Origin: a bacterium
GTDB lineage: Bacteria > Zhuqueibacterota > Zhuqueibacteria > Residuimicrobiales > Krinioviventaceae
NCBI GenBank assembly: GCA_963674595.2
Contig: CAXXFV010000009.1
Location: forward strand, 1-64,000
Direction: 5' to 3'
Length of the DNA stretch: 64,000 nt
Shown: piece after piece, positions 3,792 through 36,859 of the stretch
Layout of the letters: the number at the start of each line of letters is the position of its first letter
How positions within the stretch are numbered: position 1 is the first letter of the stretch
The notes under the pieces: generated by a model
The model's database searches: none
Seen by the model: only the letters and a program-made list of their open reading frames with translations
Told to the model about the DNA's origin: nothing
Program-made: the position numbers and the translations under genes

Positions 3792-3795
3792 GAGT

Positions 3796-10110: not shown

Positions 10111-12926
10111 ATGCAGAGAGTTTTAAAAGTCCATTTGTTTGTAATCTCCTTAATCTGTTTTTTATGCATTTCTATTACAGGATATGCTGCAACGACCGGT
10201 AAAATTGCTGGTACTGTGAAGGATTGCAAAAACTGGCGAGGCGTTACCAGGTGTAAATGTTGTTTTGGAAGGAACACAGTTAGGAGCCGCCACTAATATA
10301 GACGGTTACTATATGATACTGAACGTTCCACCCTCAACATATAGTATTAAGTTTATGTCAATGGGTTACACGCCAAAAAGGATTGATGGGGTTCGCGTTT
10401 CTGTTGGTCTCACAGCTAAAATTAATATGACGTTGGATCAATCAGTGATTGAAATGGGTGAAGTTGTTGTCGCCGCTTCCAGGCCTGTTATCGAAGTGGA
10501 CAGAACAAATACAGCCGCTTACATGTCTACTGATGAAATTTCTGAACTACCGGTTACTGAAGTTGATCAAATCATTCAATTGCAGGCAGGTGTAACACAG
10601 GATGCAAATGGTGAATTACACTTTCGTGGTGGTCGTTCCGGTGAAGTCGCTTATTTAGTTGACGGTGTGCCGGTTACAAACCGATTTGACGGAGGTAGTT
10701 CTATCGAAATCGAAAATGAAGTCATTCAGGAACTTCAGGTTATTAGTGGAACTTTTAATGCAGAATACGGCCAGGCCCAATCTGGTATTATTAATGTTAT
10801 TTCAAAAAAACGCCGGGTCAAAAATACTCTGGAAGAATCAGTATGTATGCCGGTGGTCACCTCAGTAACAATACTGATACTTTTTTGGGGATTGATGATC
10901 CCACAAACAATCCCGAGTACGATATTCAGGCAAACATTAGCGGTCCGGTTCCATTCTTTAAAAAGATTCCTATTATGGCTTTCTCCGTTATAATAAAAAT
11001 GACGGTTGGTTGAATGGTGAAAGAAGATATAACACCAGTGATGCCTGGAAAGTTATAGCATTTGGCCAGTGGTATAACCTCAACTATCCTGAAAGAGAAT
11101 TTGGACAGGAATTACCCTACAATACCTTTAAGGATAGCTTGAACCTTTTTACCGGTGATGGTGCTGTTGTGCCTATGAATCCATCAGATAAACTGGCCGG
11201 GAACCTAAAATTTTATTTTCAACCAACAGCAAGTATTCAGGCTTTTTATAATTTTTTCCTGGGACAATACTGAAGCGGCTGTTTATAATAACCGGTACAG
11301 ATATACTCCTGACGGTGTACTAACCACCCATAAAAATGCCTTTAATCATACCTTGAATATAACACACACACTAAGCGCAAATGCATTTTACCAGTTAAAT
11401 TTATCCTACTTTGGCGAAGATCGTGAAACCTACGTGTTTGAAGATCCTGCCTAATCTGGGTTATGAAACAATGATAGAGGATTTGTTTGATTATAATTGT
11501 TGGCGGAACAATTAATACTCATGAAGAACGGTCAAATTTAAAAATTTTCTAGGAAAGTGGGACATGACCTGGCAAATGGATAGAATTAACCTGGTAAAAA
11601 TTCGGTGCTGAAGTTAAAAAATTTGATTTAACTTATAAAGACATTACAACATCCGCTGTTGCAAACAGTTACAAGTTACCAACCACCCCGTTGGACTTCA
11701 TTTGAAGACTATTATGCAAGTTCAATAAGACCAACTTTTGTATGTCCCCGGAACTAATACACTGTTAAACAATCAATATACACATAATCCTCTCGAGTTT
11801 GCTGTTTATGCTCAGGATAAATTGGAACTGGGAGAGCTTATGGCCAATGTTGGTGCAAGATTCGATTATTTTGACCCGGATGGGATCGTCCCGGTAAATC
11901 CAAGAGCAAACTATAATGCTGTAACAGGCGAATTAGAAACAGACTTTGTAAAAGCTGACAAAAAATATCAGGGTCAGTCCACGTTTCGGTCTTGCTTTCT
12001 CCCATTTCAGACCAGGGTGTAATTCACGTATCCTATGGTCATTTTCTGCAGATACCACAATTCCAGTATCTTTATTATAATTCGGAATTTGAAATTTCCT
12101 CCGGACAAAAAGAAACCAGAATGGGAAATGCTGATCTCGAACAGCGGAACGAACAGTTGCCTATGAAATTGGTTTACAGCAGCAATTAACACCTGATTTT
12201 GGTATGGAATTAACATTATACTCAAAAGATATTCGAAACTTGTTAGGACAGGAAATCCTGGATACTGTTGATGAACGAGTTTACTTTCGATATACAAATC
12301 GTGATTATGGTAACGTAAAAGGAATCATGTTGTCTGTTGAAAAACGACCAACCGGATTTTTATCAGGACGCCTGGATTATACCTATCAAGTTGCCAGAGG
12401 TAATGCTTCTGGATCCGAATTCTGTGTTCTTAAACAATCAGAGTACAGAACCGGCAGAAACTGAAAAACAGGGTTATTCCTCTGAATTGGGATGAAACCC
12501 ATACAATTAACGGTTCTATTCGTTTTGGAAAACCAAGCGACTGGACAGTTAGTTTTAATCGGACGTCTTGGAACAGGTCTACCATACACGGCAGTAACTC
12601 CGCAAGAACAGCAAATTGAAACACAGTTTGAAAATAATGAAAGAAAACCAATGCGAACCAATGTAGATATTTTTACTCAAAAATATCTAAATATCGGGGA
12701 AATTGGATTTTTGTATTATTTTGTCGAGTTTTTAATATTTTTGATCACGGCAAATCATATTGATGTATACCCAAGCACAGGACGAGCGGATCGAACATAC
12801 AGAACCCCTGATGAAGTTATCATCGATTCTGCTAATGGTGTTTATTCTTTAAATGAAATAGACAACCGACCTCACTGGTATTCTGAGCCTCGTCGTGTTC
12901 AAATTGGTTTTGCTTTTGAATTCTAG
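10111..12926 (+). pseudogene. TonB-dependent receptor with N-terminal carboxypeptidase-regulatory-like domain, split by many frameshifts
   Basis: Signal peptide + TTGKIAGTV; GAATNIDGYYMILNVPP; plug HFRGGRSGEVAYLVDGV...GTFNAEYGQAQSG; YAQDK, GARFDYFDP, SYGHF; ends PRRVQIGFAFEF; GAGGAG SD. Confidence 0.88.
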
Positions 12927-12994
12927 ATATTTTAGCCTGTTGTTTATGAACAAAAATGAATAACTATTTTATTGCACTTTGTTAACTGGAGGAT

Positions 12995-15900
12995 ATGAAC
13001 ATTATGGTACGATGGTTCAATTATACGTCAAGTGTATTTTGGGTACTATTCCTGTTTTTGGTTTTACAGTTGCCAAAAGGAATTGTAGCTGAAGAAAATA
13101 TCATGATTGATGATAAATCTATCGTTTATCCTGATCCAACTGAATTATACAAATCAAGTATAAGCTTATACATCCTATCGCCGAAACTGGTCTTCATGAT
13201 GGGAATTTAATTAAAACAGCTTATTCAAATTTTGGAAATATTGGTTCACGTCCTTTGGATATTCGGTTGGAATGGCCAAAGGGTAGTGGAACAAATTACG
13301 GCTACGAATTCATATTTTATGTTGCCGCTGAAGTTATTGACGAGTTTATGGCGACACCATCCATGTAATATCTGAAAACTATACAGGCGGTCCGCGAGAT
13401 ATTGCTCCCGATGCCAGTCATACATACGGTTGGGAAACCTCTCCCCGGCTATTTTAATGATGGTAGTTATATAGGGCGGTATTTCTGAGGACTTGAATAA
13501 TAATGGTGAGCTTGATTTAGGCGAAGATGTTGATGGCAATGGTAAACTAACTTTAGATTTATATAATGAGCTTGAATATCCGGCAATGAGTCATCTTTTG
13601 CAAACATGGCCTACGGATTGGCCGGAAGGAAGTTATCCCGGAACGATAGGCAGTCGTAAAAGTTTGTGGAATGGTGAATATGGTACTTATGTTCGGGCCG
13701 ACCAGGAAAGTTATTATGTAATGGATGACAGGAGTAATGACGAATTTTTTATATTATCCCTTTATCAGTAATCCTGAGGATACGTTATCCTGGCCAGATG
13801 GTCGAAGAGGTTTGGGCTGCTGAAGTTGAAACCCGAAACTATATGTGGGCCGACGTCATGGCAGAGGACATCATGATCTCCATTTATCAGGTGAAAAATA
13901 TTAGTGAAAAAGACCTGCCGACGTGTATCGTGGGTATGTATGTTGATGCAGGACGTAGGTACTTCCGGTTCATAGCGGAGAGTGCAACAGACGATGATTC
14001 ATATTTTGATACGTTGGACGACATTACCTATCAATGGGACCTTGATGGCCTTTCAGCTAGAGGAAAGTTAACAGGGTACTTTGGATTTGCCTTTTTGCAG
14101 AGTCCGGGTCTTGCTAGCGATGGAATTGATAATTGATGAAGATGGACTTACGGATGAAAGCCAGGAAAACTGGATTGATGATGATCACGACTGGCGATCC
14201 TTTGACGATGAAAATGGAAACGGCGTTTGGGATTGGGAAGATCTTAACAATAATGGCAAGCTTGACGAAGGCGAAGATTTAAATGGTGATGGAGTACTGG
14301 ATATTGAAGACCTTCGTGATGATGTAGGTGTTGATGGTCTTGGACCGTTGGACCAGGATTGGCCGGGGCTCGGTGTTGATCCACTGGAAGGAAACGGACA
14401 GGCCGAGACGTACCAGAACCGAATTTCGAATATACGGATAATACTGAAATTGATCAGATTGGTTTAACCAGTTTTTTTGGAACAAGAGCTTCTGTTGTAC
14501 TTTCAGATGATGAAAGTTCATGGTACACAAAAATATTCCCTGGCGTTTTTACACCTCCTACAGGTGGAATTGATGTTGTCTTTTCATTATGGTTGTGGTT
14601 TTTTTCATTTAAATCGTATGTCTACGGAACGATTTGCCATCGCCTGTATACTGGGTAATGATTTTGATGATCTGCTGCGTAACAAAAGAACCATGCAGGA
14701 AATTTACGATCATGATTATAACTTTAAAAAGCCACCTCTTGAACCAACTATCGTTTCTGCTATTCCCGGCGACCAGCGTGTTACATTAATTTGGGATGAC
14801 ACGCGCTGAAAAATCCCGTGATGATCCTGTATATCAACAAGATTTTGGATTATATAAAGTTTATCGTTCCACTGATCCTGCATTTAGTGATATTAAAACA
14901 ATTACTGATGCTTTTGGAAACGCCTTATTATGGGAACCAATCGTACAATTTGATTACGCAGATGGATTAACAGGTGCACATCCGATTGCTATTGGTGAAA
15001 CCGGTGCTCATTACGATATGGGTTCGGATACCGGACTTCGGCACAGTTATATCGATACTACGTGTAGAAAACGGAAGAACTTATTTTTATGCCGTTGCCT
15101 CTGTGGATAAAGGGTATGATACAAATTTTTATGAAGATGGAATAAGTCCATATCCCGACCTGTTGCCTACCTGGCCAAGTGTATGTAATAAAAATATTCA
15201 GACTGATGTTGCTGGAAATGTTGTCGCACTTCGGACGTAATTGTGCAGTAGTTGTTCCAAAGGCCCCTGCTGCCGGTCATGATTATCCATCAATTGACTG
15301 GTGGTGTTGAGATGCGATTCTGCCGGGTATTGGAAGCGGTACTGTTAAAGTTTCCGTTTTAGTACCGGATAATATTAAAGATGACCATGATTATAAAATT
15401 ACTTTTACGGATACAACAGAAGAAAGAAGAACTAATTCATATACTGTTACTGATGTAACAGATGCAGGTAATCCTCAGGTTCTTTATGCCGGTCCTCCGG
15501 ATTTTAACCCGGCAGCAATGGATAGAATAATTCTAGATGGATTTATTGTTGATATTACTAACGACAGCATTGCAGAACCGGCTGAATGGGGATGGAAACG
15601 TGGAAAAAGCACATTGGTTGGTTACGTCGATCCTGATCCCGGAAAACACTTTCTGGCATTGCCTAATGATTTTGAGATTAGAATTATAGGGGCAAACGCT
15701 GATACGTCTTTTTCTCCCGTACCTTCATGGAGAGTACCTGTTGATTTTCAGGTGTGGAATACAACAACAAACGAAAAAGCTCAATTTATTTTGACAGAGT
15801 TTGGTGTGAAAGATAGTTCTCTTACTCATAAAGATTTTATAACCATTATTACTAATGTAAAAGGTCCTTTATACTCACCAACCTGGAAAGTAACTTTTAA

Positions 15901-16358
15901 ATTCCCTGCACTGGCAGGTGAGGTGCTGCCGGAACCTGGCGATGTTTTTTATTTTACAACCTATAAACCATTCACATCTGACGATGTTTTTGAGTTTTCC
16001 ACGTCAGGATGGGGATATACTGTTGACAAAGCTAAAAATGATTTGGAAGATGTATGTGTTGTTCCGGATCCCTATGTGTCGGTTAATTCTGTGGAAAAGC
16101 CGTCTTATAACATAAGAGGTCGTGGAGAACGTCGCGTTGACTTTATTCATTTACCAATGGTGTGTACCATTAAAATTTATACAATTAATGGAAAACTTGT
16201 AGATACTATCGAACATAACTCACCACACGATGATGGTGCAGAGCCCTGGCTCCTAACAACAAAAGACGGACTTGATGTGGCGTGGGGGGACTTATTTCTT
16301 TCATGTCGAAGCACCAGGTGTTGGTCAAAAAGTTGGCAAGTTTGCCATAATCAGGTAA
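12995..16358 (+). pseudogene. Large (~1100 aa) secreted TBDR-partner protein with DxDxNG Ca-binding repeats, FN3-like region and atypical T9SS-like C-terminus; frameshifted
   Basis: Fragments 12995-16369 include EWPKGSG, ADQESYYVMDD, DLNNNGKLDEGEDLNGDG, GDQRVTLIWD, YKVYRST, ENGRTYFYAV, VPDPY..IHLP.VCTIKIYT; frame-corrected end VAWGLYFFHVEAPGVGQKVGKFAIIR* (TAA 16356-16358). Confidence 0.75.
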
Positions 16359-16396
16359 ACGTGAATTGACGAAACCTTGAGTGTTTTAATTCTTAA

Positions 16397-18211
16397 ATGG
16401 AGGTTAATATGCGTTATTTAGTCTTGATCATAACGATTTTAGTAACAAGTTTTGGTGCTTTTGCACAGGAACCACCAGTATTTGAATTAGCTGATAATGC
16501 CTCTCTTACCATTCCACTAGTATTGATGGACAGGTGGGGATGTTCTTCTTCTGATATCGATCGAAACGGATGGCCGGATATTTATAATAACAAGTGGCGC
16601 GGTAATCTCAAAAGCCAAATCTATATGAATTATGACGGCAAATTTACAGATATTTATGACAATTCGCCGGATCTACTATCTGTAGATTTTGATGGCAACG
16701 CCACCCGTACACCTGTATTGATTGATTATGACAATGATGGTGATCGTGATTTAATGATAGGAACAGACTACAAGTTATATATGTTTAGAAATGACAATAA
16801 TGTTTTTGTAGATGTTACTGACGATTTAGGTATTGTAAGCAGTATACCGGGATTTGTCTCTGATTATAGTTATGAAATGAGCGCCTGGATTGATTGGGAC
16901 AATGATGGGGACCTCGATGCTCTTGTCGCTCAAACAAATAATCCGGATTTTATTTTTTACCGTAACGATGGTAACCAATTTGTAGATATTGCCGATGAAG
17001 TTGGATTGACTGGTAAAAACGATGTGGGAATCGATGGTGATCGAGGTTATTATACGAGTCGTATTCAATGGATTGATTGGGACAATGACGGTGATCCTGA
17101 TTTAAATGCAGGTTACAAATTATTTCGTAATGACGATGGTTTTTTAAACGAGGTTTCTGAAGAGGTTGGTTTTTTACCTTATTATAAAAACAGGTTTTGT
17201 GACTGGTTTGATTATGATTTGGATGGAGATTTTGATTATTTCCTTCAAGGATATGATAATCGTGATGAATTATGGGAAAATCAAAACGGTACCTTTGTCG
17301 ACGTAACAAATATAACAGGTTTGGAACTGTTTACCGATAATGGGCAGGCTTCTTTAAATATAGGCGATTTTGATAATGATGGTGATGAAGATATCTTCTT
17401 TTCTATTAACGACCACGATGATATTGAAGCCTTTTTATTAAACTGGGGTGACGCTACAGGACGTTTTCTTATTGAAGTTGCTGCCTATGCCGGATTTAAC
17501 CTGGTTGGAGATCGAAAAGGTGCTTCTATTCTCGATTATGATTTGGACGGACTATTGGATATATTTTGCCCTTCTTTGGAATACAGCGCTCTTATCTATC
17601 ATAACACGGGTTTGACTAGCATAACCAACAACTGGATCGCATTTGACTTGTGGGGTACAAATTCTAATAGAGACGCTCTCGGTGCCCTGGTTACGTTGTA
17701 TGCCGGAGATATGAAACTCGTTCGTTACAACAGGGCCGCAAGATCATGGAAAATCCAGGATAATACTTATATCCATTTTGGAATTGCACAGGAAACAACG
17801 GTAGACTCTGTCGTTATTCGTTGGCCGTTGGGCAACACTCAGGTTATTACTAACCCTGCTATTAACACCTATCATAAGGTCGAAGAATCAGGTTCTGCAG
17901 TAGATAATTCTCAAACAACTGATGGTCTACCGACAAGTTTTGCTCTTCAGCAAAATTATCCAAATCCATTCAATCCAACAACTCGTATAGATTATTCAAT
18001 CCCTGTATCAGGTCAGGTAAATTTGACGGTATTTGATATTAACGGACGTCAGGTTTTATCACTTGTTGATGGCTATCAAACAGCAGGAACTTTTTCCACA
18101 TTGTGGAACGGTTGTGATCGAAATGGGAACCTTGTTCCAAGCGGTGTTTATGTTTACCGTATTACTACCGATAATTTTACTCAATCACGAAAGATGTTGT
18201 TTGTAAAATAA
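16397..18211 (+). CDS. FG-GAP repeat / ASPIC-UnbV (CRTAC1-like) protein with T9SS type-A-like CTD, paralog 1
   Basis: Signal peptide (start probably ATG 16409); multiple DxDxDGDxD; SNRDALGA...HFGI...IRWP; QNYPNPFNP...KMLFVK. Confidence 0.9.
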   Translation: MEVNMRYLVLIITILVTSFGAFAQEPPVFELADNASLTIPLVLMDRWGCSSSDIDRNGWPDIYNNKWRGNLKSQIYMNYDGKFTDIYDNSPDLLSVDFDGNATRTPVLIDYDNDGDRDLMIGTDYKLYMFRNDNNVFVDVTDDLGIVSSIPGFVSDYSYEMSAWIDWDNDGDLDALVAQTNNPDFIFYRNDGNQFVDIADEVGLTGKNDVGIDGDRGYYTSRIQWIDWDNDGDPDLNAGYKLFRNDDGFLNEVSEEVGFLPYYKNRFCDWFDYDLDGDFDYFLQGYDNRDELWENQNGTFVDVTNITGLELFTDNGQASLNIGDFDNDGDEDIFFSINDHDDIEAFLLNWGDATGRFLIEVAAYAGFNLVGDRKGASILDYDLDGLLDIFCPSLEYSALIYHNTGLTSITNNWIAFDLWGTNSNRDALGALVTLYAGDMKLVRYNRAARSWKIQDNTYIHFGIAQETTVDSVVIRWPLGNTQVITNPAINTYHKVEESGSAVDNSQTTDGLPTSFALQQNYPNPFNPTTRIDYSIPVSGQVNLTVFDINGRQVLSLVDGYQTAGTFSTLWNGCDRNGNLVPSGVYVYRITTDNFTQSRKMLFVK

Positions 18212-18237
18212 TAATTTTAAAACTAACACTTGAAAAT

Positions 18238-18312
18238 TGGCGGATATTGATTGTGATTTCAGGCATAACTTTCTCCTTCATATATAAAGTTTACATAATC
18301 AATATCCTGCCA
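18238..18312. promoter_or_regulatory. Extended intergenic hairpin
   Basis: TGGCGGATATTGATTGTG pairs with CATAATCAATATCCTGCCA (one bulge, one G-U); inner AACTTT/AAAGTT. Confidence 0.55.
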
Positions 18313-18341
18313 CCTATTTTTAAAAAAAATGTTGTACATAA

Positions 18342-20162
18342 ATGTTTTTGGAGGACCTAATGTCAAGATTTATAAATACAATCATACTATTGATGGTCAT
18401 ACTCTCCTGTCCTTCATTGTTTTCTCAGGGGATATCAGTATTTGAACATATTGAAGATAATGCCAGTGTCGGACTAACTGCAGATCCTTTTGAAAGATGG
18501 GGTATGGCAGTTTCCGATATAGATCGTAATGGTTATCCGGATATTTTTGTTAACCGTTGGAGTTCTCCGGGCTTTAGTCGTATTTATATAAATGAAGGTG
18601 GTACTTTTCAGGATATTACCAGTCAATCACCTATCGAACAAATTGAAATCGATACTGAAGAAACCGCAACACGTACAACAGTTTGGGTTGATTACGATAA
18701 TGATGGTGACCGTGATTTAGCCATGTCAACTAACAAACAAATCCATTTGCTGAGAAATGATAATAATGTTTTTACAGATGTATCTGAGGAAACAGGATTT
18801 GTTGGAATTATTCCTCCCGGATTTATAACCGAATGGGATTTAACCATTGGTGGCTGGGCTGATTACGATTTGGATGGAGATTTGGACTGTGTCATTAGCC
18901 AGGTTAATAACGATAATCTTTATTTATTTCGCAATGATGATGGCCATTTTACCAACGTAGCAACAGAAGCCGGTTTGGATAATGCCCCCTCAGTAGATGA
19001 GTCCCGTCACAATTGGATGGATATAGACCTGGATGGCGATCCGGATTTATTTAGCCAATATCATTTTTACCGTAATGACAATGGTGTTTTTACAGAAATA
19101 ACTGATGAATTGGGATTTTCTGAACTTGAAGATTGCAACTATAGAAGATTTTTTGATTATGATAATGATGGAGATTTAGACTTTTTCAAATCTGTAAGCT
19201 CTGCAACTGCCGCTTCAACCTCACAGGTTTTTGAGAACCAGGACGGCGTTTTTGTCGACGTTTCTGAAAGTTTGGGTTTAACGATTACAAGAGACAGGTA
19301 TCGTAATATGGCTATCGGAGATATCGATAATGATGGTGATCAGGATGTTTTTTTACATATTAATATCACGAATACCCCGGATGTTGTCCTGTTAAATGAT
19401 GAATATGAGCCTGGTGTCAGAGGTTTTATTGATGTTGCAGAATTTATTGGTGTAACTGTAATGGGTGACAGAAAGGGATGTGCATTTTTAGATTATGATA
19501 AAGATGGATTTTTAGATATCTATGTGCCATCTGCTGAATTCTACCACATATTATATCATAATACGGCAAGTAATGGAGCAAATTGGGTTAGCTTCATTTT
19601 AGAGGGAACTATCTCAAATCGAGATGCAGTAGGTAGTTTGGTTACTATTTATACCGGAGATAAAAAACAAATCTGGTATACAACCTGTGGTGATGGATTT
19701 GTTAACCAAAGTAATCCATACGTCCATTTTGGCCTGGGAACTGAAACAGCAGTAGATTCTGTTGTTATTCGCTGGCCTCTTGGTTATAAACAGGTTTTAA
19801 CGGATGTTGCTATAAATCAATATCATAATATTAAAGAACCGGATTATATGACAAAAGTTGATGATACGCCTACGGCCCCGACTTCATTTGCCCTGGCACA
19901 AAATTATCCAAATCCTTTTAACCCGGAAACAACAATAGAGTTTTATTTGCCCAAAGCAAACAAAGTATCCTTATATGTTTATAATTTACAAGGTGAAATT
20001 GTAAATACACTTATTTCAGATGAAAACAGATCTTTAGGACAGCAACAGGTTCGATGGAATGGGTTGGACTCAAATAATCAACCTGTAGCTGCTGGTGTAT
20101 ATTTTTATAAACTGTGTGCCGGTAACAATATCGCAGTTAAAAAGATGACCCTCGTAAAATAA
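18342..20162 (+). CDS. FG-GAP/ASPIC-UnbV protein with CTD, paralog 2
   Basis: Start probably ATG 18360 after GGAGG; DYDNDGD repeats; SNRDAVG...HFGLG; QNYPNPFNP. Confidence 0.9.
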   Translation: MFLEDLMSRFINTIILLMVILSCPSLFSQGISVFEHIEDNASVGLTADPFERWGMAVSDIDRNGYPDIFVNRWSSPGFSRIYINEGGTFQDITSQSPIEQIEIDTEETATRTTVWVDYDNDGDRDLAMSTNKQIHLLRNDNNVFTDVSEETGFVGIIPPGFITEWDLTIGGWADYDLDGDLDCVISQVNNDNLYLFRNDDGHFTNVATEAGLDNAPSVDESRHNWMDIDLDGDPDLFSQYHFYRNDNGVFTEITDELGFSELEDCNYRRFFDYDNDGDLDFFKSVSSATAASTSQVFENQDGVFVDVSESLGLTITRDRYRNMAIGDIDNDGDQDVFLHINITNTPDVVLLNDEYEPGVRGFIDVAEFIGVTVMGDRKGCAFLDYDKDGFLDIYVPSAEFYHILYHNTASNGANWVSFILEGTISNRDAVGSLVTIYTGDKKQIWYTTCGDGFVNQSNPYVHFGLGTETAVDSVVIRWPLGYKQVLTDVAINQYHNIKEPDYMTKVDDTPTAPTSFALAQNYPNPFNPETTIEFYLPKANKVSLYVYNLQGEIVNTLISDENRSLGQQQVRWNGLDSNNQPVAAGVYFYKLCAGNNIAVKKMTLVK

Positions 20163-20165
20163 GAA

Positions 20166-21254
20166 ATGAATTTATTGGAGTATTTTGTGAAATTAAATTT
20201 CAAAGTGAACTTTATATTAATTTTTTTACTAGTCTTTGTAAACGGAGCTATTTTAAATGCCCAGGATTTACCGTCTGTAAAGGTTATTTCCGTTGAGCGG
20301 ATTTTTCATAACGGAGAACATAATAGCTTTACAGATATGTGTAAATTCAATGACACATACTATGTCGCTTTTAGAAGTTGTCCTGAAGGACACATGATTT
20401 TTCCCAGTTCCTCAATTATTATTCTTTCAAGTAAGGACGGTAAAGATTGGAAACAGGTTCACAAATTTAATATCCTGATGCGAGATACACGTGACCCTCA
20501 TTTTCTTATTTTTAAGGATAAATTATTTGTCTATACCGGGACTTGGTACTGCAAGGAACGGTATTGCAACTCTAAAGAACGTTCCACAAACCAGCAGCTT
20601 GGATATTGTGTATGGACAACTGATGGGACGAATTGGAGTGAACCGGAAATGAATGAAGGGACTTATGGTCATTATACCTGGAGAGCTGCTGCTTTTAATG
20701 ACAAAGCTTATCTCTGTGCCCGTCGTATGCACGAATTCGCCCAAGTTCTTCCTGATGATGAAAGTAGATACTATATTGAATCTGCTATGCTGGAAAGTGA
20801 TGATGGTATTATATGGAAGAAAAAGGCTCTATTTCAAAAATTTCGTGGTGATGAAACGGCTTTCCTCTTTGAAGATGATGGCTCTTTATTAGCAATTGCC
20901 CGAAGAGATTCAAATGCCCAGGTATTACGCTCCAAGCCTCCATACCAGGAGTGGACACGGACCGATCTTGGTTGCTATTTAGGTGGTCCTCTGGTGGTTA
21001 AATGGAACGACTATTACCTCGTTGGCGGTCGCAAAAAAGAGAATGATGTGAAAAAAACAGCATTATTCTGGCTGAAAGATGACAAGTTAGTCGAGTGTGC
21101 AGAATTACCTAGCGAAGGAGATAATTCTTATCCTGGTTTCGTGCAAATATCAGAAACCAGGGCTCTTGTTTCCTATTATTCATCACATGAAAAAGATGAC
21201 GCCGGCGAGCCTATTACAGCAATTTATTTAGCAACAATAGAAATAACTAAATAA
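20166..21254 (+). CDS. Secreted sialidase-like beta-propeller protein of unknown function
   Basis: Signal peptide; HNSFTD...YVAFR, SKDGKDW and SDDGIIW Asp-box-like motifs, RDP, GDNSYPG...SYYSSHE; no CTD. Confidence 0.65.
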   Translation: MNLLEYFVKLNFKVNFILIFLLVFVNGAILNAQDLPSVKVISVERIFHNGEHNSFTDMCKFNDTYYVAFRSCPEGHMIFPSSSIIILSSKDGKDWKQVHKFNILMRDTRDPHFLIFKDKLFVYTGTWYCKERYCNSKERSTNQQLGYCVWTTDGTNWSEPEMNEGTYGHYTWRAAAFNDKAYLCARRMHEFAQVLPDDESRYYIESAMLESDDGIIWKKKALFQKFRGDETAFLFEDDGSLLAIARRDSNAQVLRSKPPYQEWTRTDLGCYLGGPLVVKWNDYYLVGGRKKENDVKKTALFWLKDDKLVECAELPSEGDNSYPGFVQISETRALVSYYSSHEKDDAGEPITAIYLATIEITK

Positions 21255-21295
21255 TTTAACATGAGAATAAAATAAAACAAACCCTAGGAGCTATT

Positions 21296-28717: not shown

Positions 28718-29779
28718 ATGAACATCGGACGATTTAATTTATTGTTTGTGTGCGTATGCGTCATATTTTTTTCTACTTTGCTATACGCACAGGATGGAAA
28801 ATCTACATCGACGAGCAGCGGCTCAACTGACGTTTCCAATACCGGAACTTCAGTTGGCGGATTTTTAGAAATTGGCGCCGGGGCAAGAGCACAAGCTATG
28901 GGTGGTGCTTTTACATCTGTAGCAGATGATGCTACTGCAATGTATTGGAACCCGGCTGGTATTTCACGGTTAGGTAGTATGGAAGCAACTTTTAACTATA
29001 CTAATTGGCTTGTGGATACTCAATATGCCTATGCCGGTATTGTTGCTCCTTTGGGTACATGGGGAGCTGTCGGTGCGAATGTAACACATTTTGATTTCGG
29101 AGAACAACCCGTTCGTACCATAGCAAGACCAGATGGAACAGGCGAAGTATATGGCGCCAGCGATATTGCACTTGGTCTGGCATTTGGAATGAATTTGACT
29201 GACCGGTTTTCTTTTGGATTTAACTTTAAATATGTTAATCAAAGAATTTGGCATGAAACCGCAAGTGGTTACGCTATGGATTTGGGTGCACTCTATGATA
29301 CACCTTTGGATGGATTGCGCCTGGGATTTACAGTACAGAATTTTGGAACCGACATGAAGCTTTCTGGTCGTGACCTTAGACGAGCTTATGATCCAGACCC
29401 AATTAATTATGGAAACGACGCGATTAATGTATTATATGAAACCGATACCTTTTCTTTACCTCTTAAATTTCGTTTTGGAGCATCCTACAAAATTAATTTT
29501 TCTGAAACGCAATCCCTTTTGTTAGTGTCCGATGTACTTCACCCAAGTAACAATTCAGAATCTTTGAATCTTGGAATGGAATATTCTGCTTTTAATACGA
29601 TACAGCTTCGCGGTGGCTATGAATCTATTTTTGAACGTGATAGTATTAGTGGACTTAGCCTCGGTGTTGGAATTCATCAAAGAATTCAAAATACAATGAT
29701 GATTTATTTTGATTATGGCTGGGTGGATTGGGGAGCCTTTTCCAGTGTAAATAGATTTTCTCTTGGAATAGGTTTCTGA
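28718..29779 (+). CDS. PorV/PorQ-family outer-membrane beta-barrel
   Basis: Signal peptide; FLEIGAGARAQAMGGAF..ADDATAMYWNPAG signature; amphipathic strands; C-terminal Phe. Confidence 0.88.
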   Translation: MNIGRFNLLFVCVCVIFFSTLLYAQDGKSTSTSSGSTDVSNTGTSVGGFLEIGAGARAQAMGGAFTSVADDATAMYWNPAGISRLGSMEATFNYTNWLVDTQYAYAGIVAPLGTWGAVGANVTHFDFGEQPVRTIARPDGTGEVYGASDIALGLAFGMNLTDRFSFGFNFKYVNQRIWHETASGYAMDLGALYDTPLDGLRLGFTVQNFGTDMKLSGRDLRRAYDPDPINYGNDAINVLYETDTFSLPLKFRFGASYKINFSETQSLLLVSDVLHPSNNSESLNLGMEYSAFNTIQLRGGYESIFERDSISGLSLGVGIHQRIQNTMMIYFDYGWVDWGAFSSVNRFSLGIGF

Positions 29780-29934: not shown

Positions 29935-32900
29935 ATGCACAAATTTTTTTCAGTACTGATTTGCACATTGTTGGTTTGCCTGGTGTCATTTCCTGCTCTG
30001 GGCCAGGAAGCAGAACCAAACAACACAATTGCTACAGCCAATGATTTAAATCTTAATGAATTATTAAATGCCCAATTTTCTCAAGATGACACATTGGATG
30101 TTTTTAAAATTTCAGTGGATGATACCAAGATGTATACCATTGCCACTGTAACAGATCCAAATGTATTCAGCGCAAAAACCACCATTAAAATGGATGTTGT
30201 AGACGTCAATGATATATCTATCCTGACAGCAGATCCATCAAGTCGATATGATGCGATGGGTGCCCGTTTAACAGGGTGGGTTCCGCCTGCAACAGGTGAA
30301 TATTATGTCAAAGTATGGGCATCACCTGACAAAATTGCCGAAGCAACAGATCCAAGTTACGGCATGCGTTTATGGTACGGTACACCGGTAGCAGATGCAT
30401 TGATACCGCATGAACCGGATGATACGGTAGCAGAAGCCGCCTTATTACCTGCAACGCCGACAGATGGTACCATGATCCGTGGTTATCTGTACAACAATTA
30501 TGTTGAAGGTGACAGCATTGATACCAACTGGAATGACTTTGACTTGTACAAAGTTGAAGTACCTGAAGCCGGTATGGTTATGATAGCTGAAACTTTTACC
30601 TCAGCCCGTTTATATGGCCATCCGGAATGGATTCGTGATCTTGATACGGAAATTCGTTTACTGCTTGAAGACGGTACCGAAACAGACATCAAGAACGATG
30701 ATAAAGATGCCTGGGCCGGAGATCACTGGGAAGATGATTTACCAGGATGCAGCAACACATATTCACGTTTTGTATCTCCTGGATTCCCTGCAGCCGGAAC
30801 TTATTATGTACGAGTAAACTCTTATTACAACAGCATTATTCGCGAAAAGAATCCTGCAAACACGGATAGAGATCCGGGTGGCGGCGAATATATGTTCTCT
30901 GTAAAATTATTAGCAGCCGATGATCCGAGTTTGACTGCCCAGGCATTACCGCTGAACGAACTTAAGAACAGTTCATTTACGGCAGCAGATACTTTGGATA
31001 TTTGGTCAATTTATGCAGAAAATGACAAGATGTATACTTTAGCCACTGTAACAGATCCGAATGTATTCAGCGCAAAAACCACAATTCATATGGATGTTAT
31101 GGATGAAGATGGTGTATCTATCCTGACAGCAGATCCATCAAGTCGATATGATGCGATGGGCGCTCGTTTAACTGGATGGGTCCCGCCCGAAACAGGTGTA
31201 TATTATGTTAAAGTATGGGCATCACCTGACAAGATTGCCGAAGCCACAGATCCAAGTTACGGTATGCGTTTCTGGTACGGCACACCGGTAGCAGATGCAT
31301 TGATACCGCATGAACCGGATGATACCGTAGCAGAAGCCGCCTTATTACCACCAACGCCGACAGACGGTACCATGATCCGTGGTTATCTCTACAATCACTA
31401 TGTTGAAGGTGACAGCATTGATACCAACTGGAACGACTTTGACTTGTACAAAGTTGAAGTACCTGAAGCCGGTATGGTTATGATAGCTGAAACATTTACT
31501 TCAGCACGTTTGTATGACCATCCGGAATGGATTCGTGATCTCGATACGGAAATTCGTTTGCTGCTTGAAGACGGCACAGAAACAGACATCAAGAACGATG
31601 ATAAAGATGCCTGGGCCGGAGACCATTGGGAAGATGTATTACCAGGATGCAGCAACACATATTCACGATTTGTATCTCCTGGTTTCCCTGCAGCTGGAAC
31701 TTATTATGTACGAGTAAACTCTTATTACAACAGCATTATTCGCGAAAAGAATCCTGCAAACACGGATAGAGATCCGGGTGGCGGCGAATATATGTTCTCT
31801 GTAAAATTATTAGCTGCTGATGATCCGAGTTTGACTGCTCAAGCATTACCGTTGAACGAGCTTAAGAACAGTGCATTCTCATCATCAGATACTTTGGATG
31901 TATGGTCTATATTTGCAGAAAATGACAAAATGTACACCATATCCACTGTAACAGACCCGAATGTTTTCAGCGCAAAAACCACAATTCATATGGATGTTAC
32001 GGATGCAAATGGCGTATCTATCCTGACAGCAGATCCATCAAGTCGATATGATGCGATGGGCGCTCGTTTAACTGGATGGGTCCCACCAGAAACAGGTGTA
32101 TATTATGTTAAAGTGTGGGCATCACCTGACAAGATTGCCGAAGCCACAGATCCAAGTTACGGTATGCGTTTCTGGTACGGCACACCGGTAGCCGAAGCTG
32201 CTGTTGTTCATGAACCGGATGATACGGTAGAAGAAGCCGCCTTATTGCCTGCAACGCCGACAGATGGTACCATGATTCGTGGTTATCTGTACAACAATTA
32301 TGTTGAAGGTGACAGCATTGATACCAACTGGAATGACTTTGACTTGTACAAAGTTGAAGTACCTGAAGCCGGTATGGTTATGATAGCTGAAACATATACT
32401 TCAGCCCGTTTATATGATCATCCTGAATGGATTCGTGATCTTGATACGGAAATTCGTTTGCTGCTTGAAGACGGCACTGAAACAGACATCAAGAACGATG
32501 ATAAAGATGCCTGGGCCGGAGATCACTGGGAAGATGATTTACCAGGATGCAGCAATACCTATTCACGATTTGTATCACCTGGATTCCCTGCAGCCGGAAC
32601 TTATTATGTACGAGTAAACTCTTATTACAATAGCATTATTCGCGAAAAGAATCCTGCAAACACGGATAGAGATCCGGGTGGCGGCGAATATATGTTCAAT
32701 GTACGGGTTGTCCCGGCAGATCATCCAATGTTGGCTGCTCAATCATTACCGCTTAATGAACTCAAGAACAGTTCATTTACGGCAGCAGATACTTTGGATA
32801 TTTGGTCAATTTATGCAGAAAATGACAAGATGTATACTTTAGCCACTGTAACAGATCCGAATGTATTCAGTGCTAAAACTACGATTAAAATGGATGTTAC

Positions 32901-34827
32901 GGATGAAGATGGTGTCTCTATACTGACATCTGATCCATCAAGTCGATATGATGCGATGGGCGCCCGTTTAACAGGGTGGGTACCACCTGAAACAGGTGTC
33001 TATTATGTTAAAGTATGGGCCTCACCGGAAAAGCTTGCAGAGGTTGAAGACCCAAGTTACGGTATGCGTTTCTGGTACGGAACTCCTGTCTCTGTTGCAG
33101 CAGTACCACATGAACCGGATGATACGGTTGAAGAAGCCGCCTTATTGGATCCAACTCCGACAGATGGTACCATGATTCGTGGTTATCTCTACAATCACTA
33201 TGTTGAAGGTGACAGTATTGATACCAACTGGAATGACTTTGACTTGTATAAAGTTGTAGTACCTCAAGCCGGTATGATAATGACGGCTGAAACATTTACG
33301 TCAGCACGTTTGTATGATCATCCGGAATGGATTCGTGATCTTGATACGGAAATTCGTTTGCTGCTTGAAGACGGTACCGAAACAGACATCAAGAACGATG
33401 ATAAAGATGCCTGGGCCGGTGATCATTGGGAAAATGATTTACCAGGATGCAGCAATACCTATTCACGTTTTGTATCTCCTCCGTTCCCTGCAGCCGGAAC
33501 ATATTATGTACGAGTAAATTCATATTACAATAGCATTATTCGTGAAAAGAATCCTGCAAACACCGATAAAGATCCGGGTGGCGGTGAATATATGTTCTCC
33601 GTAACACTTACTCTCCCAGCGGAACAGGAACCGAATAATGATATAGCAGATGCAAACTTGATTCTGCTTGACACAGTTACCGATGCCGCATTGGCCCCGG
33701 AAGATTCTGTTGATTACTTTAAATTTATGGCAGATACCACACGAATGTATACATTAAATACAATCGGCGTTCGTGGTGTTAGTGCAAAATCCATCCTCAA
33801 AATGGACGTTCTGGATGAAACCGGAACCAGCATCTTAAATGCTGACCCTTCCAGTCGATACGATGGTTGGGGCGCCAGATTAACAGGATGGGTGCCGCCG
33901 GCTAATGGTGTGTATTATTGCAAGATCTCTGCAGATGTTTCAGCATTTACTGAAGAATTCCCATATCAGGTCAGATTATGGTATGGAACTCCTGTTTCTG
34001 TTGCAGCGGAAGTTCATGAACCGGATGATTCTGTAGCTGTTGCGCAGAATTTTGAAACAATTGATCTTACCGCAGAACCTTTTGAACTTCGTTCTTATCT
34101 CTATGCCCCGATGTGGGACAGCCTTGGTAACCGTCATAACTGGAACGATTTCGATCTTTACAAAATCCAGTTGACCGCCGGTGATACACTTGTAGCTGAA
34201 GTTTTCACACCAGGTCCTGACAGTTGTATCCGTGATTTGGATACTGAAATTTACCTGCTGTTGGAAGACGGTACCATTACAGATATCAAGAACGATGATA
34301 AGGATGCCTGGGAAGGTGATCCCTGGGAAGACTATTTAACAGGTGTAAGCAACACTTATTCACGGTTCGTTACTCCGCCTGTTCCTGCTGATGGTATCTA
34401 CTATGTGCAGGTTAACTCTTTCTACAACAGTCGTATTCGTGAAAGAAATCCATTGACAGATCATAAAGATCCAGGTGGTGGCGAGTATCTGATTAGATTG
34501 AACCTGCAAGATGGAGTTGGTGTTAACGGAAATTCTAATGTTCTACCAACTAAATTTGCACTTAACCAGAATTACCCGAATCCATTTAATCCGACAACAA
34601 CAATCAGTTATGCATTGCCCAAGCAAGAACATGTTAAATTGTATATTTATAACATGTTAGGTCAAAAGGTAACGGAACTGGTTAATAAATCACAGGTTGC
34701 TGGTAATTATTCAGTCGTCTGGGATGCTCGTGATATCAATGGATTGGCTGTTTCTTCTGGTGTTTACTTTTTCAGAATTGAAGCTGGTACATTTACAAGA
34801 ACAAACAAGATGATTTTACTAAAATAA
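29935..34827 (+). CDS. 1630-aa secreted tandem-repeat protein (5 x ~300 aa, each with two PPC-like modules) with CTD
   Basis: Signal peptide; EPNN/EPDD...D.YK...DLDTEI.LL...NDD...GTYYVRV PPC-like motifs; QNYPNPFNP; no catalytic domain recognised. Confidence 0.85.
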   Translation: MHKFFSVLICTLLVCLVSFPALGQEAEPNNTIATANDLNLNELLNAQFSQDDTLDVFKISVDDTKMYTIATVTDPNVFSAKTTIKMDVVDVNDISILTADPSSRYDAMGARLTGWVPPATGEYYVKVWASPDKIAEATDPSYGMRLWYGTPVADALIPHEPDDTVAEAALLPATPTDGTMIRGYLYNNYVEGDSIDTNWNDFDLYKVEVPEAGMVMIAETFTSARLYGHPEWIRDLDTEIRLLLEDGTETDIKNDDKDAWAGDHWEDDLPGCSNTYSRFVSPGFPAAGTYYVRVNSYYNSIIREKNPANTDRDPGGGEYMFSVKLLAADDPSLTAQALPLNELKNSSFTAADTLDIWSIYAENDKMYTLATVTDPNVFSAKTTIHMDVMDEDGVSILTADPSSRYDAMGARLTGWVPPETGVYYVKVWASPDKIAEATDPSYGMRFWYGTPVADALIPHEPDDTVAEAALLPPTPTDGTMIRGYLYNHYVEGDSIDTNWNDFDLYKVEVPEAGMVMIAETFTSARLYDHPEWIRDLDTEIRLLLEDGTETDIKNDDKDAWAGDHWEDVLPGCSNTYSRFVSPGFPAAGTYYVRVNSYYNSIIREKNPANTDRDPGGGEYMFSVKLLAADDPSLTAQALPLNELKNSAFSSSDTLDVWSIFAENDKMYTISTVTDPNVFSAKTTIHMDVTDANGVSILTADPSSRYDAMGARLTGWVPPETGVYYVKVWASPDKIAEATDPSYGMRFWYGTPVAEAAVVHEPDDTVEEAALLPATPTDGTMIRGYLYNNYVEGDSIDTNWNDFDLYKVEVPEAGMVMIAETYTSARLYDHPEWIRDLDTEIRLLLEDGTETDIKNDDKDAWAGDHWEDDLPGCSNTYSRFVSPGFPAAGTYYVRVNSYYNSIIREKNPANTDRDPGGGEYMFNVRVVPADHPMLAAQSLPLNELKNSSFTAADTLDIWSIYAENDKMYTLATVTDPNVFSAKTTIKMDVTDEDGVSILTSDPSSRYDAMGARLTGWVPPETGVYYVKVWASPEKLAEVEDPSYGMRFWYGTPVSVAAVPHEPDDTVEEAALLDPTPTDGTMIRGYLYNHYVEGDSIDTNWNDFDLYKVVVPQAGMIMTAETFTSARLYDHPEWIRDLDTEIRLLLEDGTETDIKNDDKDAWAGDHWENDLPGCSNTYSRFVSPPFPAAGTYYVRVNSYYNSIIREKNPANTDKDPGGGEYMFSVTLTLPAEQEPNNDIADANLILLDTVTDAALAPEDSVDYFKFMADTTRMYTLNTIGVRGVSAKSILKMDVLDETGTSILNADPSSRYDGWGARLTGWVPPANGVYYCKISADVSAFTEEFPYQVRLWYGTPVSVAAEVHEPDDSVAVAQNFETIDLTAEPFELRSYLYAPMWDSLGNRHNWNDFDLYKIQLTAGDTLVAEVFTPGPDSCIRDLDTEIYLLLEDGTITDIKNDDKDAWEGDPWEDYLTGVSNTYSRFVTPPVPADGIYYVQVNSFYNSRIRERNPLTDHKDPGGGEYLIRLNLQDGVGVNGNSNVLPTKFALNQNYPNPFNPTTTISYALPKQEHVKLYIYNMLGQKVTELVNKSQVAGNYSVVWDARDINGLAVSSGVYFFRIEAGTFTRTNKMILLK
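30040..33600 (+). repeat. Four highly similar 900-bp intragenic tandem repeats (a fifth, divergent copy extends to ~34503)
   Basis: Marker ACTGTAACAGA at 30145, 31045, 31945 and 32845 gives an exact 900-bp period. Confidence 0.95.
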
Positions 34828-34854
34828 TTATCTAGTTTGCATTAACTTTACTTT

Positions 34855-34890
34855 GGAAGGGATTTGAAAATTTTTCAAATCCCTTCCTTT
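34855..34890 (+). terminator. Intrinsic terminator-like hairpin
   Basis: GGAAGGGATTTGAAAA-T-TTTTCAAATCCCTTCC perfect 16-bp inverted repeat followed by TTT, 28 bp after the stop. Confidence 0.8.
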
Positions 34891-34903
34891 AATATATCAA
34901 CTA

Positions 34904-34984: not shown

Positions 34985-35056
34985 GTCCCTATACAATCCA
35001 ATTATTTTACTCCTTTTCCCTTAACTGATTTATTAAATACACGAGCGGAGATAAAG

Positions 35057-36859
35057 ATGAAACAGGTTATCGGTTTGATATTATTATGTGCTACTGTTTG
35101 TTTTGGACAAGAGTTTGCTGTTTATGAGAGTGTTGAGTATAGTCAGGTTGGTTTTAATCCTGCTCCGTTTGAAAAATGGGGAGCTGCTTTTGGTGATCTG
35201 GATAAAAACGGCTGGCCCGATATTTTTATTCTACGTTGGAAATCTCCTGGCCATAGCCAGGTTTACCTGAATCAAGATGGCGTGTTTACAGAAATTACAG
35301 ATAATACACCTCTTGAAGAAATTGAAACAGAAGAATTACAAACAGCTTCAGTAACATGTGTTGATTATGATAATGATGGTGATCAGGATATTTATTTTGG
35401 AACAGATCTACACATGCATTTATTACGCAACGACGGCAATTCTTTTGTTGATGTTGCAGCCGATGTCGGCCTAACGGCTGGTATGCCGGGTTTTGTTACA
35501 GAATATAAATTTCGTATCGGTATTTGGGCTGATTATGACCTGGATGGTGATCTTGATCTTGTTGTTGGACAACAGAACAATAAAAATGTGTTATTTTACA
35601 AAAATGAACAAGGTCAATTTACTGATGTGGCTGACCAGGTAGGTGTTGCAAATGCCGCTTATCAGCCAGGTGAATATGATTATCCTGAAGGAACCCGTGG
35701 TACCCGACATATGCAATGGGTTGATTACGACCTGGATGGTGATCCTGATTTAAATGTGGGCGGTTATCTCTATCGTAATGATGACGGATATTTTACAAAT
35801 GTATCAGAACAATTAGGCTTTTCCCCTACACAAATTCAAAATGCAGACTGGTTTGATTATGATAACGACGGCGATTTGGATTATTATAAAAATGTTGTCA
35901 GTCCCACTGCTGCTTCGACAAATGAATTGTGGGAAAATCGGGATGGGTCTTTTGTTGATGTTTCTCTGGAAACAGGAGTCGGTCTGAGAGACCGTTACCA
36001 GGGATTAAGTATTGGTGATTATGAAAATGATGGTGATCAGGACATTTTTATTCAGCTAAATACCTATACTGCTAAAGAGTTGTTGCTGCTAAATGATGAA
36101 ACAAGTCCTGGAGTACGGGCTTTTGCTGATATTGCCGAATTTATCGGCCTGGAGGTTACAGGCGACCGAAAGGGCGGTGGATTTTTAGATTATAACATGG
36201 ATGGATTTTTGGATATTTATATTCCATCAGCGGGACAATCTCATATACTTTATAAAAATTTAACCACAAGCAATAACTGGGTTGGTTGTATTCTGGAAGG
36301 AACAGAATCAAATAAAGATGCCATTGGAACATTGGTGAAAATTGTAACAGGTACAAAAACTCAAATTAGATATACAAAATCGCCAACTGGTTGGCTGTCC
36401 CAGGATAACCCGTTTGTTCACTTTGGTGTTGGTACCGCAACTGTCATAGATTCTTTAATTATTCGATGGCCATTGGGTAAAACTGAAGTTTATACCAATG
36501 TGGATATTAATCAATATCACAAGTTTAAAGAAGGAACAAATGTTGCCGTCGAATCCGATGATTCAAAAACTGTTATTCCGGAAAAGTTTAAATTATCTCA
36601 AAATTATCCAAACCCTTTTAACCCCACTACAACATTAACTTATTCTCTGCCTGAAACTGAATATGTAAAATTGAATATTTATAATATGAACGGTCAAATT
36701 ATATCTGAATTGGTTAATGAAATTCAAACACCCGGAACATATTTTCTAAATTGGGATGCAACTGACAAACAAGGGAAAAGTGTTTCTGCAGGTGTTTATT
36801 TTTATAAAATTGAAACAGAAACTTTTTCTGATGTTAAGAAAATGGTACTCGTCAAATAA
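35057..36859 (+). CDS. FG-GAP/ASPIC-UnbV protein with CTD, paralog 7
   Basis: Signal peptide; DYDNDGD repeats; SNKDAIG...HFGVG; QNYPNPFNP. Confidence 0.9.
   Translation: MKQVIGLILLCATVCFGQEFAVYESVEYSQVGFNPAPFEKWGAAFGDLDKNGWPDIFILRWKSPGHSQVYLNQDGVFTEITDNTPLEEIETEELQTASVTCVDYDNDGDQDIYFGTDLHMHLLRNDGNSFVDVAADVGLTAGMPGFVTEYKFRIGIWADYDLDGDLDLVVGQQNNKNVLFYKNEQGQFTDVADQVGVANAAYQPGEYDYPEGTRGTRHMQWVDYDLDGDPDLNVGGYLYRNDDGYFTNVSEQLGFSPTQIQNADWFDYDNDGDLDYYKNVVSPTAASTNELWENRDGSFVDVSLETGVGLRDRYQGLSIGDYENDGDQDIFIQLNTYTAKELLLLNDETSPGVRAFADIAEFIGLEVTGDRKGGGFLDYNMDGFLDIYIPSAGQSHILYKNLTTSNNWVGCILEGTESNKDAIGTLVKIVTGTKTQIRYTKSPTGWLSQDNPFVHFGVGTATVIDSLIIRWPLGKTEVYTNVDINQYHKFKEGTNVAVESDDSKTVIPEKFKLSQNYPNPFNPTTTLTYSLPETEYVKLNIYNMNGQIISELVNEIQTPGTYFLNWDATDKQGKSVSAGVYFYKIETETFSDVKKMVLVK

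Follow-up and report, generated by a model that had tools for sequence, protein, structure and literature searches.

The window considered here, a stretch of 64,000 nucleotides (positions 1 to 64,000 of contig CAXXFV010000009.1, assembly GCA_963674595.2), originates from a bacterium of the Fibrobacterota–Chlorobiota–Bacteroidota (FCB) group, whose nearest named relatives belong to candidate division KSB1. Its central part harbours a putative glycan utilisation operon composed of a TonB-dependent receptor (TBDR), a large partner protein of a family without a name, a barrel of the PorV/PorQ family, and an array of CRTAC1-like propeller proteins that carry the type-A C-terminal domain (CTD) of type IX secretion system (T9SS) cargo. 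All long open reading frames (ORFs) from 10111 to 36859 are located on the plus strand, and the single co-directional block described for this region in the first-pass annotation is, thus, borne out by the ORF map.

The operon is headed by a gene for a DeoR-family regulator (8500–8940; Pfam HTH_DeoR and DeoRC), whose ORF is shortened by a patch of indels in the deposited sequence. It is followed, on the same strand as all genes listed here, by the TBDR gene (10111–12926; CarboxypepD_reg, Plug, and barrel domains) and by the gene of the partner of ~1110 amino acids (12995–16369; delineated by tblastn), which lie in at least seven and at least eight frame pieces, respectively. Next come the propellers C1 (16397–18211) and C2 (18342–20162), a gene for a secreted 362-amino-acid protein modelled as a six-bladed sialidase-fold propeller (20166–21254), and the propellers C3 (21296–23095), C4 (23117–24943), C5 (24965–26809), and C6 (26818–28638). 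The PorV/PorQ-family barrel of 14-strand type is encoded at 28718–29779, and a PPC repeat protein of 1630 amino acids with a type-A CTD (Pfam PPC and Por_Secre_tail) at 29935–34827. A terminator-like hairpin with a 15-pair stem (34855–34887, plus strand) lies between the latter and the seventh propeller, C7 (35057–36859). Intergenic gaps measure 3–155 nt between 16369 and 29935; together with the strong hairpin, which is a likely operon end, they suggest a single transcript as far as the repeat protein, with C7 probably forming a separate transcription unit. An Rfam scan of the window retrieved no family.

Catabolic genes identified by Pfam occupy the plus strand from 37179 to 63999. They comprise two SSF symporters, a GH2 glycoside hydrolase (GH), a LamG protein and two YWTD propellers, all three with CTDs, pairs of EEP-family and esterase genes, a CN-hydrolase, a GH20 enzyme, two GH130 enzymes, and an FGE-sulfatase-like gene; the carbohydrate-active enzymes expected downstream of the block (GH2, GH20, two GH130, and esterases) are, hence, present. 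The YWTD / LDL-receptor class B propeller proteins form a tandem pair with T9SS tails (41136–45136), followed by the LamG protein and then an EEP-family protein, both tailed. On the other side, positions 1–8500 hold a polysaccharide-biosynthesis cluster with genes for a GT2 and a GT1-like glycosyltransferase (GT), a carbamoyltransferase, a GT4 enzyme, a DegT aminotransferase, a Polysacc_synt_2 protein, and a hexapeptide transferase. The GC content drops to 0.31–0.32 at 4–10 kb, compared to ~0.38 in the locus.

The receptor–partner–barrel cassette

The domains Plug, TonB_dep_Rec_b-barrel, and CarboxypepD_reg are found, in keeping with a plug and a receptor barrel of 22-strand type, on all four intact TBDR paralogs of the same genome, to which the TBDR of the window aligns over its full length, in pieces; matches to NCBIfam and Pfam are also obtained on its fragments. 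Intact orthologues of 941–947 amino acids are present in three other genomes (G001, G026, and G041). With the SusC/RagA model TIGR04056, an intact TBDR paralog attains 53.2 bits, compared to a cut-off of 368.25, and in the whole genome no SusC/RagA member exceeds the cut-off, the best score being 121.7 bits. SusD (PF07980) yields no match in the 97.56%-complete genome, while the Bacteroides thetaiotaomicron control is positive. This supports the notion of a TonB-receptor locus that lacks SusD and carries a CTD-bearing partner in its place.

In the window, the partner and the barrel are separated by six CRTAC1-like genes and the 362-amino-acid gene. The same split order, with the DeoR gene first, directly upstream of the TBDR gene, and with intact TBDR and partner genes, is encountered in G001, G041, and G026, the latter two representing another family of the same order. 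The DeoR orthologue of G001 is intact (271 amino acids), and HTH_DeoR plus DeoRC are also matched by L082:4573-5385. Elsewhere in the genome, intact receptor–partner–barrel sets occur on contigs C17, C27 (two), C37, and C23, besides two weak ones. Each of the six barrels of this genome that score above 440 bits on the family's own profile resides in a locus with a partner.

A wider synteny survey of TBDR–partner–PorV triplets, as proposed with the first-pass annotation, was based on a scan with the partner profile over one genome per species, which gave at least 597 stretches and at least 483 relatives. The 77 loci kept come from KSB1, Calditrichota, Ignavibacteria, Marinimicrobia, Rhodothermales, Balneolaceae, and Zixibacteria; they contain 87 partner ORFs, whose neighbours were counted with profiles made from the copies of this genome. 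A barrel adjoins the partner in 68 of the 73 partner ORFs with at least 1.3 kb of downstream sequence, and a TBDR does so in 53 of the 57 with at least 3.1 kb upstream, revealing a unit that recurs across FCB phyla. In 76 of the 77 loci any CRTAC1-like gene is lacking; the remaining one, L016, is at the same time a further exception to partner–barrel adjacency. Downstream of the cassettes, a peptidyl-prolyl isomerase (PPIase) of the SurA/PpiC type or another CTD protein is often found.

Barrels of this kind are present in all 41 genomes searched of the order. In G001, the genome of L016, 56 barrel matches were counted in 7.4 Mb, and the cassette family is, as judged by such matches, greatly expanded there. 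More pairs of a tail protein with its own barrel are seen in two PorU-like paralogs, C16:414305-419455 (1609 amino acids, 311.6 bits) and C4:130388-135549 (1611 amino acids, 265.3 bits; C16 and C4 denoting contigs), both of which are below the PorU cut-off and directly followed by a PorV-family barrel.

The partner protein begins with a signal peptide and a supersandwich head containing acidic loops, continues with Fn3/Ig-like domains, and ends in a divergent CTD. Intact partner paralogs are matched by no Pfam or NCBIfam family, an Atlas search with the partner returned unnamed clusters only, a PDB sequence search with the partner profile gave a chance match only (E 0.57), and Foldseek on the whole partner retrieved Ig/Fn3 arrays only, at TM scores of 0.1 or less. 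For structure prediction, the G001 orthologue with an alignment of 62 sequences was used; the model has a predicted local distance difference test score (pLDDT) of 84.1 and a predicted TM score of 0.78. In a fold search of this model, residues ~55–570 resemble the galactose-mutarotase-like supersandwich (Z 19.4–16; 234–272 residues aligned; root-mean-square deviation 2.8–3.8), with the matches being the non-catalytic N-terminal domains of GH15, GH94, GH65, and GH116 enzymes. An acidic loop region lies inside the head. Beyond the latter come β-sandwich domains, then a disordered linker, and finally a sandwich of ~78 residues at the C-terminus. According to the model, the head is a supersandwich fold of the carbohydrate-binding type.

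A type-A-like CTD had also been assigned to the partner, which did not hold. None of the 62 partner C-termini reaches a Pfam CTD cut-off, neither that of type A nor that of type B; PF18962 is hit by one of the 62 (E 0.0099), and 41 of the 62 have no match at all. Weak matches are obtained exclusively with the CTD models of PorZ and PorU (E 8e-5 to 0.03 in three of four).

The barrel of the window belongs to the PorV/PorQ family as initially stated (NF033709, 201.9 bits versus a cut-off of 90), but remains below the equivalog cut-offs (PorV model NF033710, 69.8 versus 250 bits; PorQ model NF033711, 101.8 versus 220 bits) and scores 28.3 bits with the BamG model versus a cut-off of 250. It is 38–47% identical to the other cassette barrels of the genome and 68–75% identical to its orthologues in G001 (75%), G026, and G041; a dedicated PorV-like barrel within a conserved unit is supported in four genomes. 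When barrel and partner CTD were subjected to complex prediction, scores of 0.72, 0.72, and 0.67 were obtained, versus 0.01 for the best of three controls, with contacts agreeing at 97% or more and a partner pLDDT of at least 74; in the benchmark of this score, 116 of 157 solved complexes attain the mark, compared to 2 of 215 mismatched pairs. Since complexes of PorV-family barrels with CTDs have already been solved, the docking indicates a similar binding mode and is no demonstration of binding. Gene order and tail type assign the barrel to the partner and not to the propeller paralogs.

The propeller array, the sialidase-fold gene and the repeat protein

The prediction of seven FG-GAP/ASPIC-UnbV paralogs is confirmed by Pfam and NCBIfam: all seven proteins, of ~600 amino acids each, combine FG-GAP_3, UnbV_ASPIC, and Por_Secre_tail (Pfam). 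The tail family PF18962 is detected on the seven propellers and the repeat protein alike (eight of eight, E 1.4e-4 to 2.1e-10), six of them scoring above the 27-bit cut-off and two slightly under it (22.5 and 26.1 bits); TIGR04183 is above cut-off on the three of these eight tailed proteins that were tested, including C1 (43.4 bits). Comparable tails are borne by ~45 other type-A cargo proteins spread over the genome. By sequence, the sole solved relative is CRTAC1 (PDB 9etn), which the propeller profile matches at E 1.6e-24, and the invariant residues are mostly D/N/G calcium-loop motifs. Catalytic families of Pfam and NCBIfam are not matched on the propellers.

The array comprises nine CRTAC1-like copies in G001 and three in each of G041 and G026. 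In a maximum-likelihood tree of all 27 CRTAC1-like copies, none of which was dropped, the subfamilies A (C1), B (C3), and C (C2 and C6) have a member in all four genomes, whereas D (C4 and C5, 79% identical) and E (C7) are common to the window and G001 only. Because of this distribution, the triad A/B/C is, as read from the tree, old and kept, with recent duplications added on top. The suggestion that the paralogs differ in specificity fits the preservation of subfamilies across species; its second part, a repertoire tethered by the barrel, is not supported. For five further CRTAC1-like genes at other places in the genome, the ORFs listed within 9 kb include no PorV-family barrel (own profile).

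Between 16700 and 23900, short-read contigs jump among the CRTAC1-like paralogs, the sides of the joints measuring 20–34 nt. An interpretation of these joints as rearrangements was rejected on account of their sides of at most 34 nt, and they are regarded as repeat-induced, probably reflecting assembly confusion at conserved motifs. Paralog copy numbers in metagenome-assembled genomes from short reads may, consequently, be unreliable.

The first-pass annotation saw no recognisable catalytic domain in the paralogs or the repeat protein; this is correct for the paralogs according to Pfam and NCBIfam, but a sialidase-fold gene of the block (20166–21254) was overlooked. Its product is modelled as a six-bladed sialidase-type propeller (pLDDT 91.7), with the uncharacterised Dfer_1899 (5hx0) as best Foldseek match (TM 0.72), followed by the GH33 sialidases NanA, Neu2, and PG_0352 (TM 0.60–0.66, ~0.63). 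At the family level the scores are below the cut-offs (BNR_2, 18.4 versus 31.4 bits; BT_1020-like, 24.6 versus 27). Numerous R, D, E, and Y residues are invariant in the family. The product is probably an enzyme. Among 2641 homologues, the best 120 are 55–67% identical and include planctomycete and verrucomicrobial entries.

The gene resides inside the array in all four genomes. At a second locus of the genome, on contig C3 (C3:377375-380352), a CRTAC1-like gene likewise lies beside a sialidase-fold paralog; over C3:377375-384209, the CRTAC1-like gene (subfamily B side) is followed by the paralog, which is 59% identical, a DegT-type aminotransferase, and an SSF symporter. A universal pairing of the two families was considered and rejected: of 80 metagenome loci fetched, 57 had enough flank, none of which showed a CRTAC1-like neighbour, the models having recovered all genes of the window as a control. 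The flanking genes vary (GntR regulators, a further BNR gene, a GH9 fusion), and at L141:5872-9423 a single frame of 1184 amino acids joins the sialidase-fold domain with a polysaccharide deacetylase and GH9.

The repeat protein (29935–34827) is built of five units of 300 amino acids, each with two PPC-like modules, and a type-A CTD; the ten modules initially counted are confirmed, and the identity at offset 300 is 0.68. In the gene, these units appear as direct repeats of 900 nt with 74–96% nucleotide identity, and because of this long period, Tandem Repeats Finder reported nothing. Recent amplification or homogenisation is suggested by the first four units, parts of which are 91–96% identical to one another. 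The orthologue in G001 appears as two fragments, possibly owing to a collapsed repeat, and a similar repeat protein is situated downstream of the cassette on contig C17.

Integrity of the receptor and partner genes

The TBDR and the partner recognised in the initial annotation are present and conserved, but they are not open genes in the window, since at least 15 frameshifts interrupt them and no frame remains open across 10111–16369 in the deposited sequence. With intact paralogs of the same genome, tblastn spans the whole stretch, with at least seven frame changes in the TBDR gene, of which residues 12–964 are covered over three frames, and at least eight in the partner gene, one of them 80 nt ahead of its end. 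The majority of the switch points are located at homopolymer runs of A, T, or G.

To the region 6000–24000, Logan contigs from four sequencing runs (X6–X9; two samples, two studies) were aligned. They show nearly zero substitutions relative to the window, but lack single letters at 52 counted indel places, 12 of which are listed. One-letter omissions occur in the contigs of all four runs within 8531–16284, and none past 16284; in X7, 42 gaps (4, 16, 7, 6, and 9 in the individual contigs) fall into 8531–14691, compared to 0 over 17260–22411. When seven listed letters within 12524–13105 are dropped, the identity to the TBDR of G001 rises from 72.0% (125 amino acids) to 76.6% (128 amino acids). 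As the additional letters are absent from short-read contigs of two studies, the breaks are attributed to the assembly: 8531–16284, a stretch with many surplus single letters and no biological feature of its own, assigned to neither strand, is poorly polished, and TBDR and partner are probably intact in the organism. As deposited, the two genes would be annotated as pseudogenes.

That they are true pseudogenes of a locus decaying in this strain is extremely improbable. Such decay would account for the frame changes in the deposited sequence and for one observation that weighs against the artefact, namely that the X8 contig matches the window at 16284, whereas X6, X7, and X9 lack one letter there. 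It is at odds with contigs that differ from the window by missing letters and almost no substitutions, with the truncation of the upstream DeoR gene by the same patch, with the abrupt end of the latter at 16284, with the position of the frame changes at homopolymers, with the better match to the orthologue upon removal of the listed letters, and with the intact orthologues in three genomes. The discordant position belongs to a run of six G (16279–16284), 80 nt before the partner stop, and X8 stems from the same sample as X7; the run could be either an error or a length-variable tract.

Interpretation and relation to known systems

The reading we prefer, at a probability of roughly 0.55, is that of a DeoR-headed glycan operon resembling a polysaccharide utilisation locus (PUL), with a receptor–partner–barrel core and with the propellers as general T9SS cargo. 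Its core would be formed by a TonB receptor outside the SusC family, a secreted partner of ~1100 amino acids, and a dedicated PorV/PorQ-family barrel. The partner would cross the outer membrane via the T9SS with its CTD retained, and would be held on the surface by its own barrel, as in the pairs PorZ–PorQ and PorU–PorV; once there, it may capture substrate for the receptor and, thereby, act as a functional equivalent of SusD. The cassette of this lineage would have been split by calcium-binding CRTAC1-like propellers and one presumed sialidase-fold enzyme. The propellers, most likely accessory surface binding proteins of differing specificity, would rely on the housekeeping PorV/PorU, and the PPC repeat protein would be an additional surface component. 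A T9SS core is encoded in the genome, comprising SprA, PorU (879.7 bits), and a near-canonical PorV candidate (239.2 bits; C8:116250-117323). The substrate is probably a glycoprotein or an acidic glycan, which we infer from the sialidase fold, GH2, GH20, GH130, the esterases, and the SSF symporters.

Several points weigh against this reading. Among the surveyed loci, L054 and L064 have no barrel beside the partner, the former having no TBDR either, and in L053, L060, and L072 the order is receptor–barrel–partner. A supersandwich fold alone is no proof of sugar binding, and the pairing of sialidase-fold and CRTAC1-like genes is, on the evidence of the 57 flanked metagenome loci, lineage-specific and has little bearing on function. 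The docking was performed with alignments of our own and with G001 orthologues in place of the broken gene of the window, and it may have passed due to likeness to the solved PorV–CTD, PorQ–PorZ, and PorU–PorV complexes. The preference of the barrel for the partner over the paralogs is argued from synteny and tail type only.

The main rival, in itself unlikely, regards the propellers as enzymes, e.g., lyases or hydrolases that depend on calcium and attack an acidic glycan; the array would then supply several secreted catalysts. Polysaccharide lyases occur among propeller proteins with FG-GAP-like repeats, every subfamily is well conserved across species, two loci of the genome have propellers tightly beside a sialidase-fold enzyme, and several copies are near SSF symporters. 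However, no catalytic family is matched, the sole solved sequence relative is CRTAC1, calcium-loop motifs dominate the invariant residues, and our literature searches retrieved no functional study of a bacterial member. It is doubtful, too, that the barrel tethers the seven propellers, along with the repeat protein, by their CTDs, with an exchangeable capture repertoire replacing SusD and the surface glycan-binding proteins, as the first-pass annotation had envisaged. The position of the barrel, after six paralogs and before the repeat protein in an operon-like block, would suit such a tether and is kept in G001, G026, and G041; moreover, all paralogs bear CTDs, and PorV-family barrels are known as CTD binders (available parts of PMC12618676 and PMC12578637). 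Yet 68 of 73 partners adjoin a barrel with no CRTAC1-like gene involved, L016 being the sole case in 77 loci, the strong barrels pair one-to-one with partners (6/6), the paralogs have ordinary type-A CTDs as do ~45 other proteins of the genome, and the five other CRTAC1-like genes have no own-profile barrel among the ORFs listed up to 9 kb away. The tether of the propellers is, therefore, not upheld.

A role of the cassette in outer-membrane biogenesis or T9SS attachment, i.e., as a PorZ/PorQ-like module with barrel protein and chaperone, appears highly improbable. The partner tail is matched best by PorZ/PorU models, a SurA/PpiC-type PPIase follows many cassettes, and FadL-type barrels anchor surface proteins in the Bacteroidota β-barrel assembly machinery (BAM) complex, according to the available part of PMC12578637. 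Equipment of this kind is difficult to reconcile with six to eight copies in this genome and dozens of barrels in G001, with the embedding of the copies in different catabolic loci, with a first gene that has a full Plug and receptor barrel, and with the separate PorU, PorV candidate, and SprA of the genome. A more ambitious version of the preferred PUL-like operon, equally doubtful as the tether, would unite receptor, anchored partner, subfamilies A/B/C, and the PPC protein in one T9SS-delivered surface machine, a “utilisome” of non-Bacteroidia FCB phyla, in which the propellers, possibly as a hetero-oligomer of the three subfamilies, serve as exchangeable capture heads passing an acidic glycan or glycoprotein to partner and receptor.

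To our knowledge, KSB1, Calditrichota, Ignavibacteria, Marinimicrobia, and Rhodothermales are abundant sediment and marine polymer degraders that lack SusD. If the PUL-like reading is true, a T9SS-delivered, barrel-held receptor partner would explain how substrates are captured in such SusD-less phyla, and the three genes would provide a marker for locating their utilisation loci. The present locus is a conserved case of a cassette taking up an expanding array of CRTAC1-like propellers, and the array offers a bacterial context for testing the role of this widespread family. Our literature searches retrieved no paper describing the receptor–partner–barrel triplet or the function of bacterial CRTAC1 proteins. 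The available part of the Caldithrix genome paper mentions TonB receptors for vitamins only (PMC5317091). Cognate CTD–shuttle pairs (PMC12618676) and FadL-type barrels as anchors (PMC12578637) are, as far as the available parts of these papers show, already published; new in the window is the conserved split cassette with a CRTAC1-like array and a sialidase-fold gene.

As in SusC/SusD (RagA/RagB) PULs, a TBDR gene is followed by that of a surface partner in a regulated cluster with GHs and inner-membrane sugar transporters; the PUL-type context consists here of the co-located DeoR regulator, GH2, GH20, two GH130, esterases, and two SSF symporters. In contrast to these systems, the receptor is under the SusC/RagA cut-off, the partner is a T9SS-type secreted all-β protein of ~1100 amino acids instead of a lipoprotein, and a third gene, for a PorV/PorQ-family barrel, is obligatory. 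The predicted binding of a CTD-like tail by a FadL/PorV-family barrel is reminiscent of PorZ–PorQ and PorU–PorV of Porphyromonas gingivalis. Unlike these, the cassette exists in numerous copies within a genome, every copy is linked to a TonB receptor, its partner body is unrelated, its barrel is below both equivalog cut-offs, and tail retention is a prediction only.

Type-B CTD substrates of Flavobacterium johnsoniae have cognate PorP/SprF-like shuttles, where, according to the available part of the report (PMC12618676), a secreted protein is likewise genetically linked to its own shuttle or anchor barrel deciding its final place. The cassette differs in having a PorV/PorQ barrel, a tail under the type-A and type-B Pfam cut-offs, and a link to a receptor. 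It is also distinct from BamG–BamH of the Bacteroidota BAM, a complex for protein insertion in which BamH is a lipoprotein (available part of PMC12578637). The propellers, finally, share with CRTAC1/ASPIC-UnbV (9etn) the succession of FG-GAP_3 repeats and UnbV_ASPIC as well as the calcium-loop motifs; in contrast to CRTAC1, they are bacterial proteins with T9SS type-A tails and form arrays of three to nine paralogs inside a receptor cassette.

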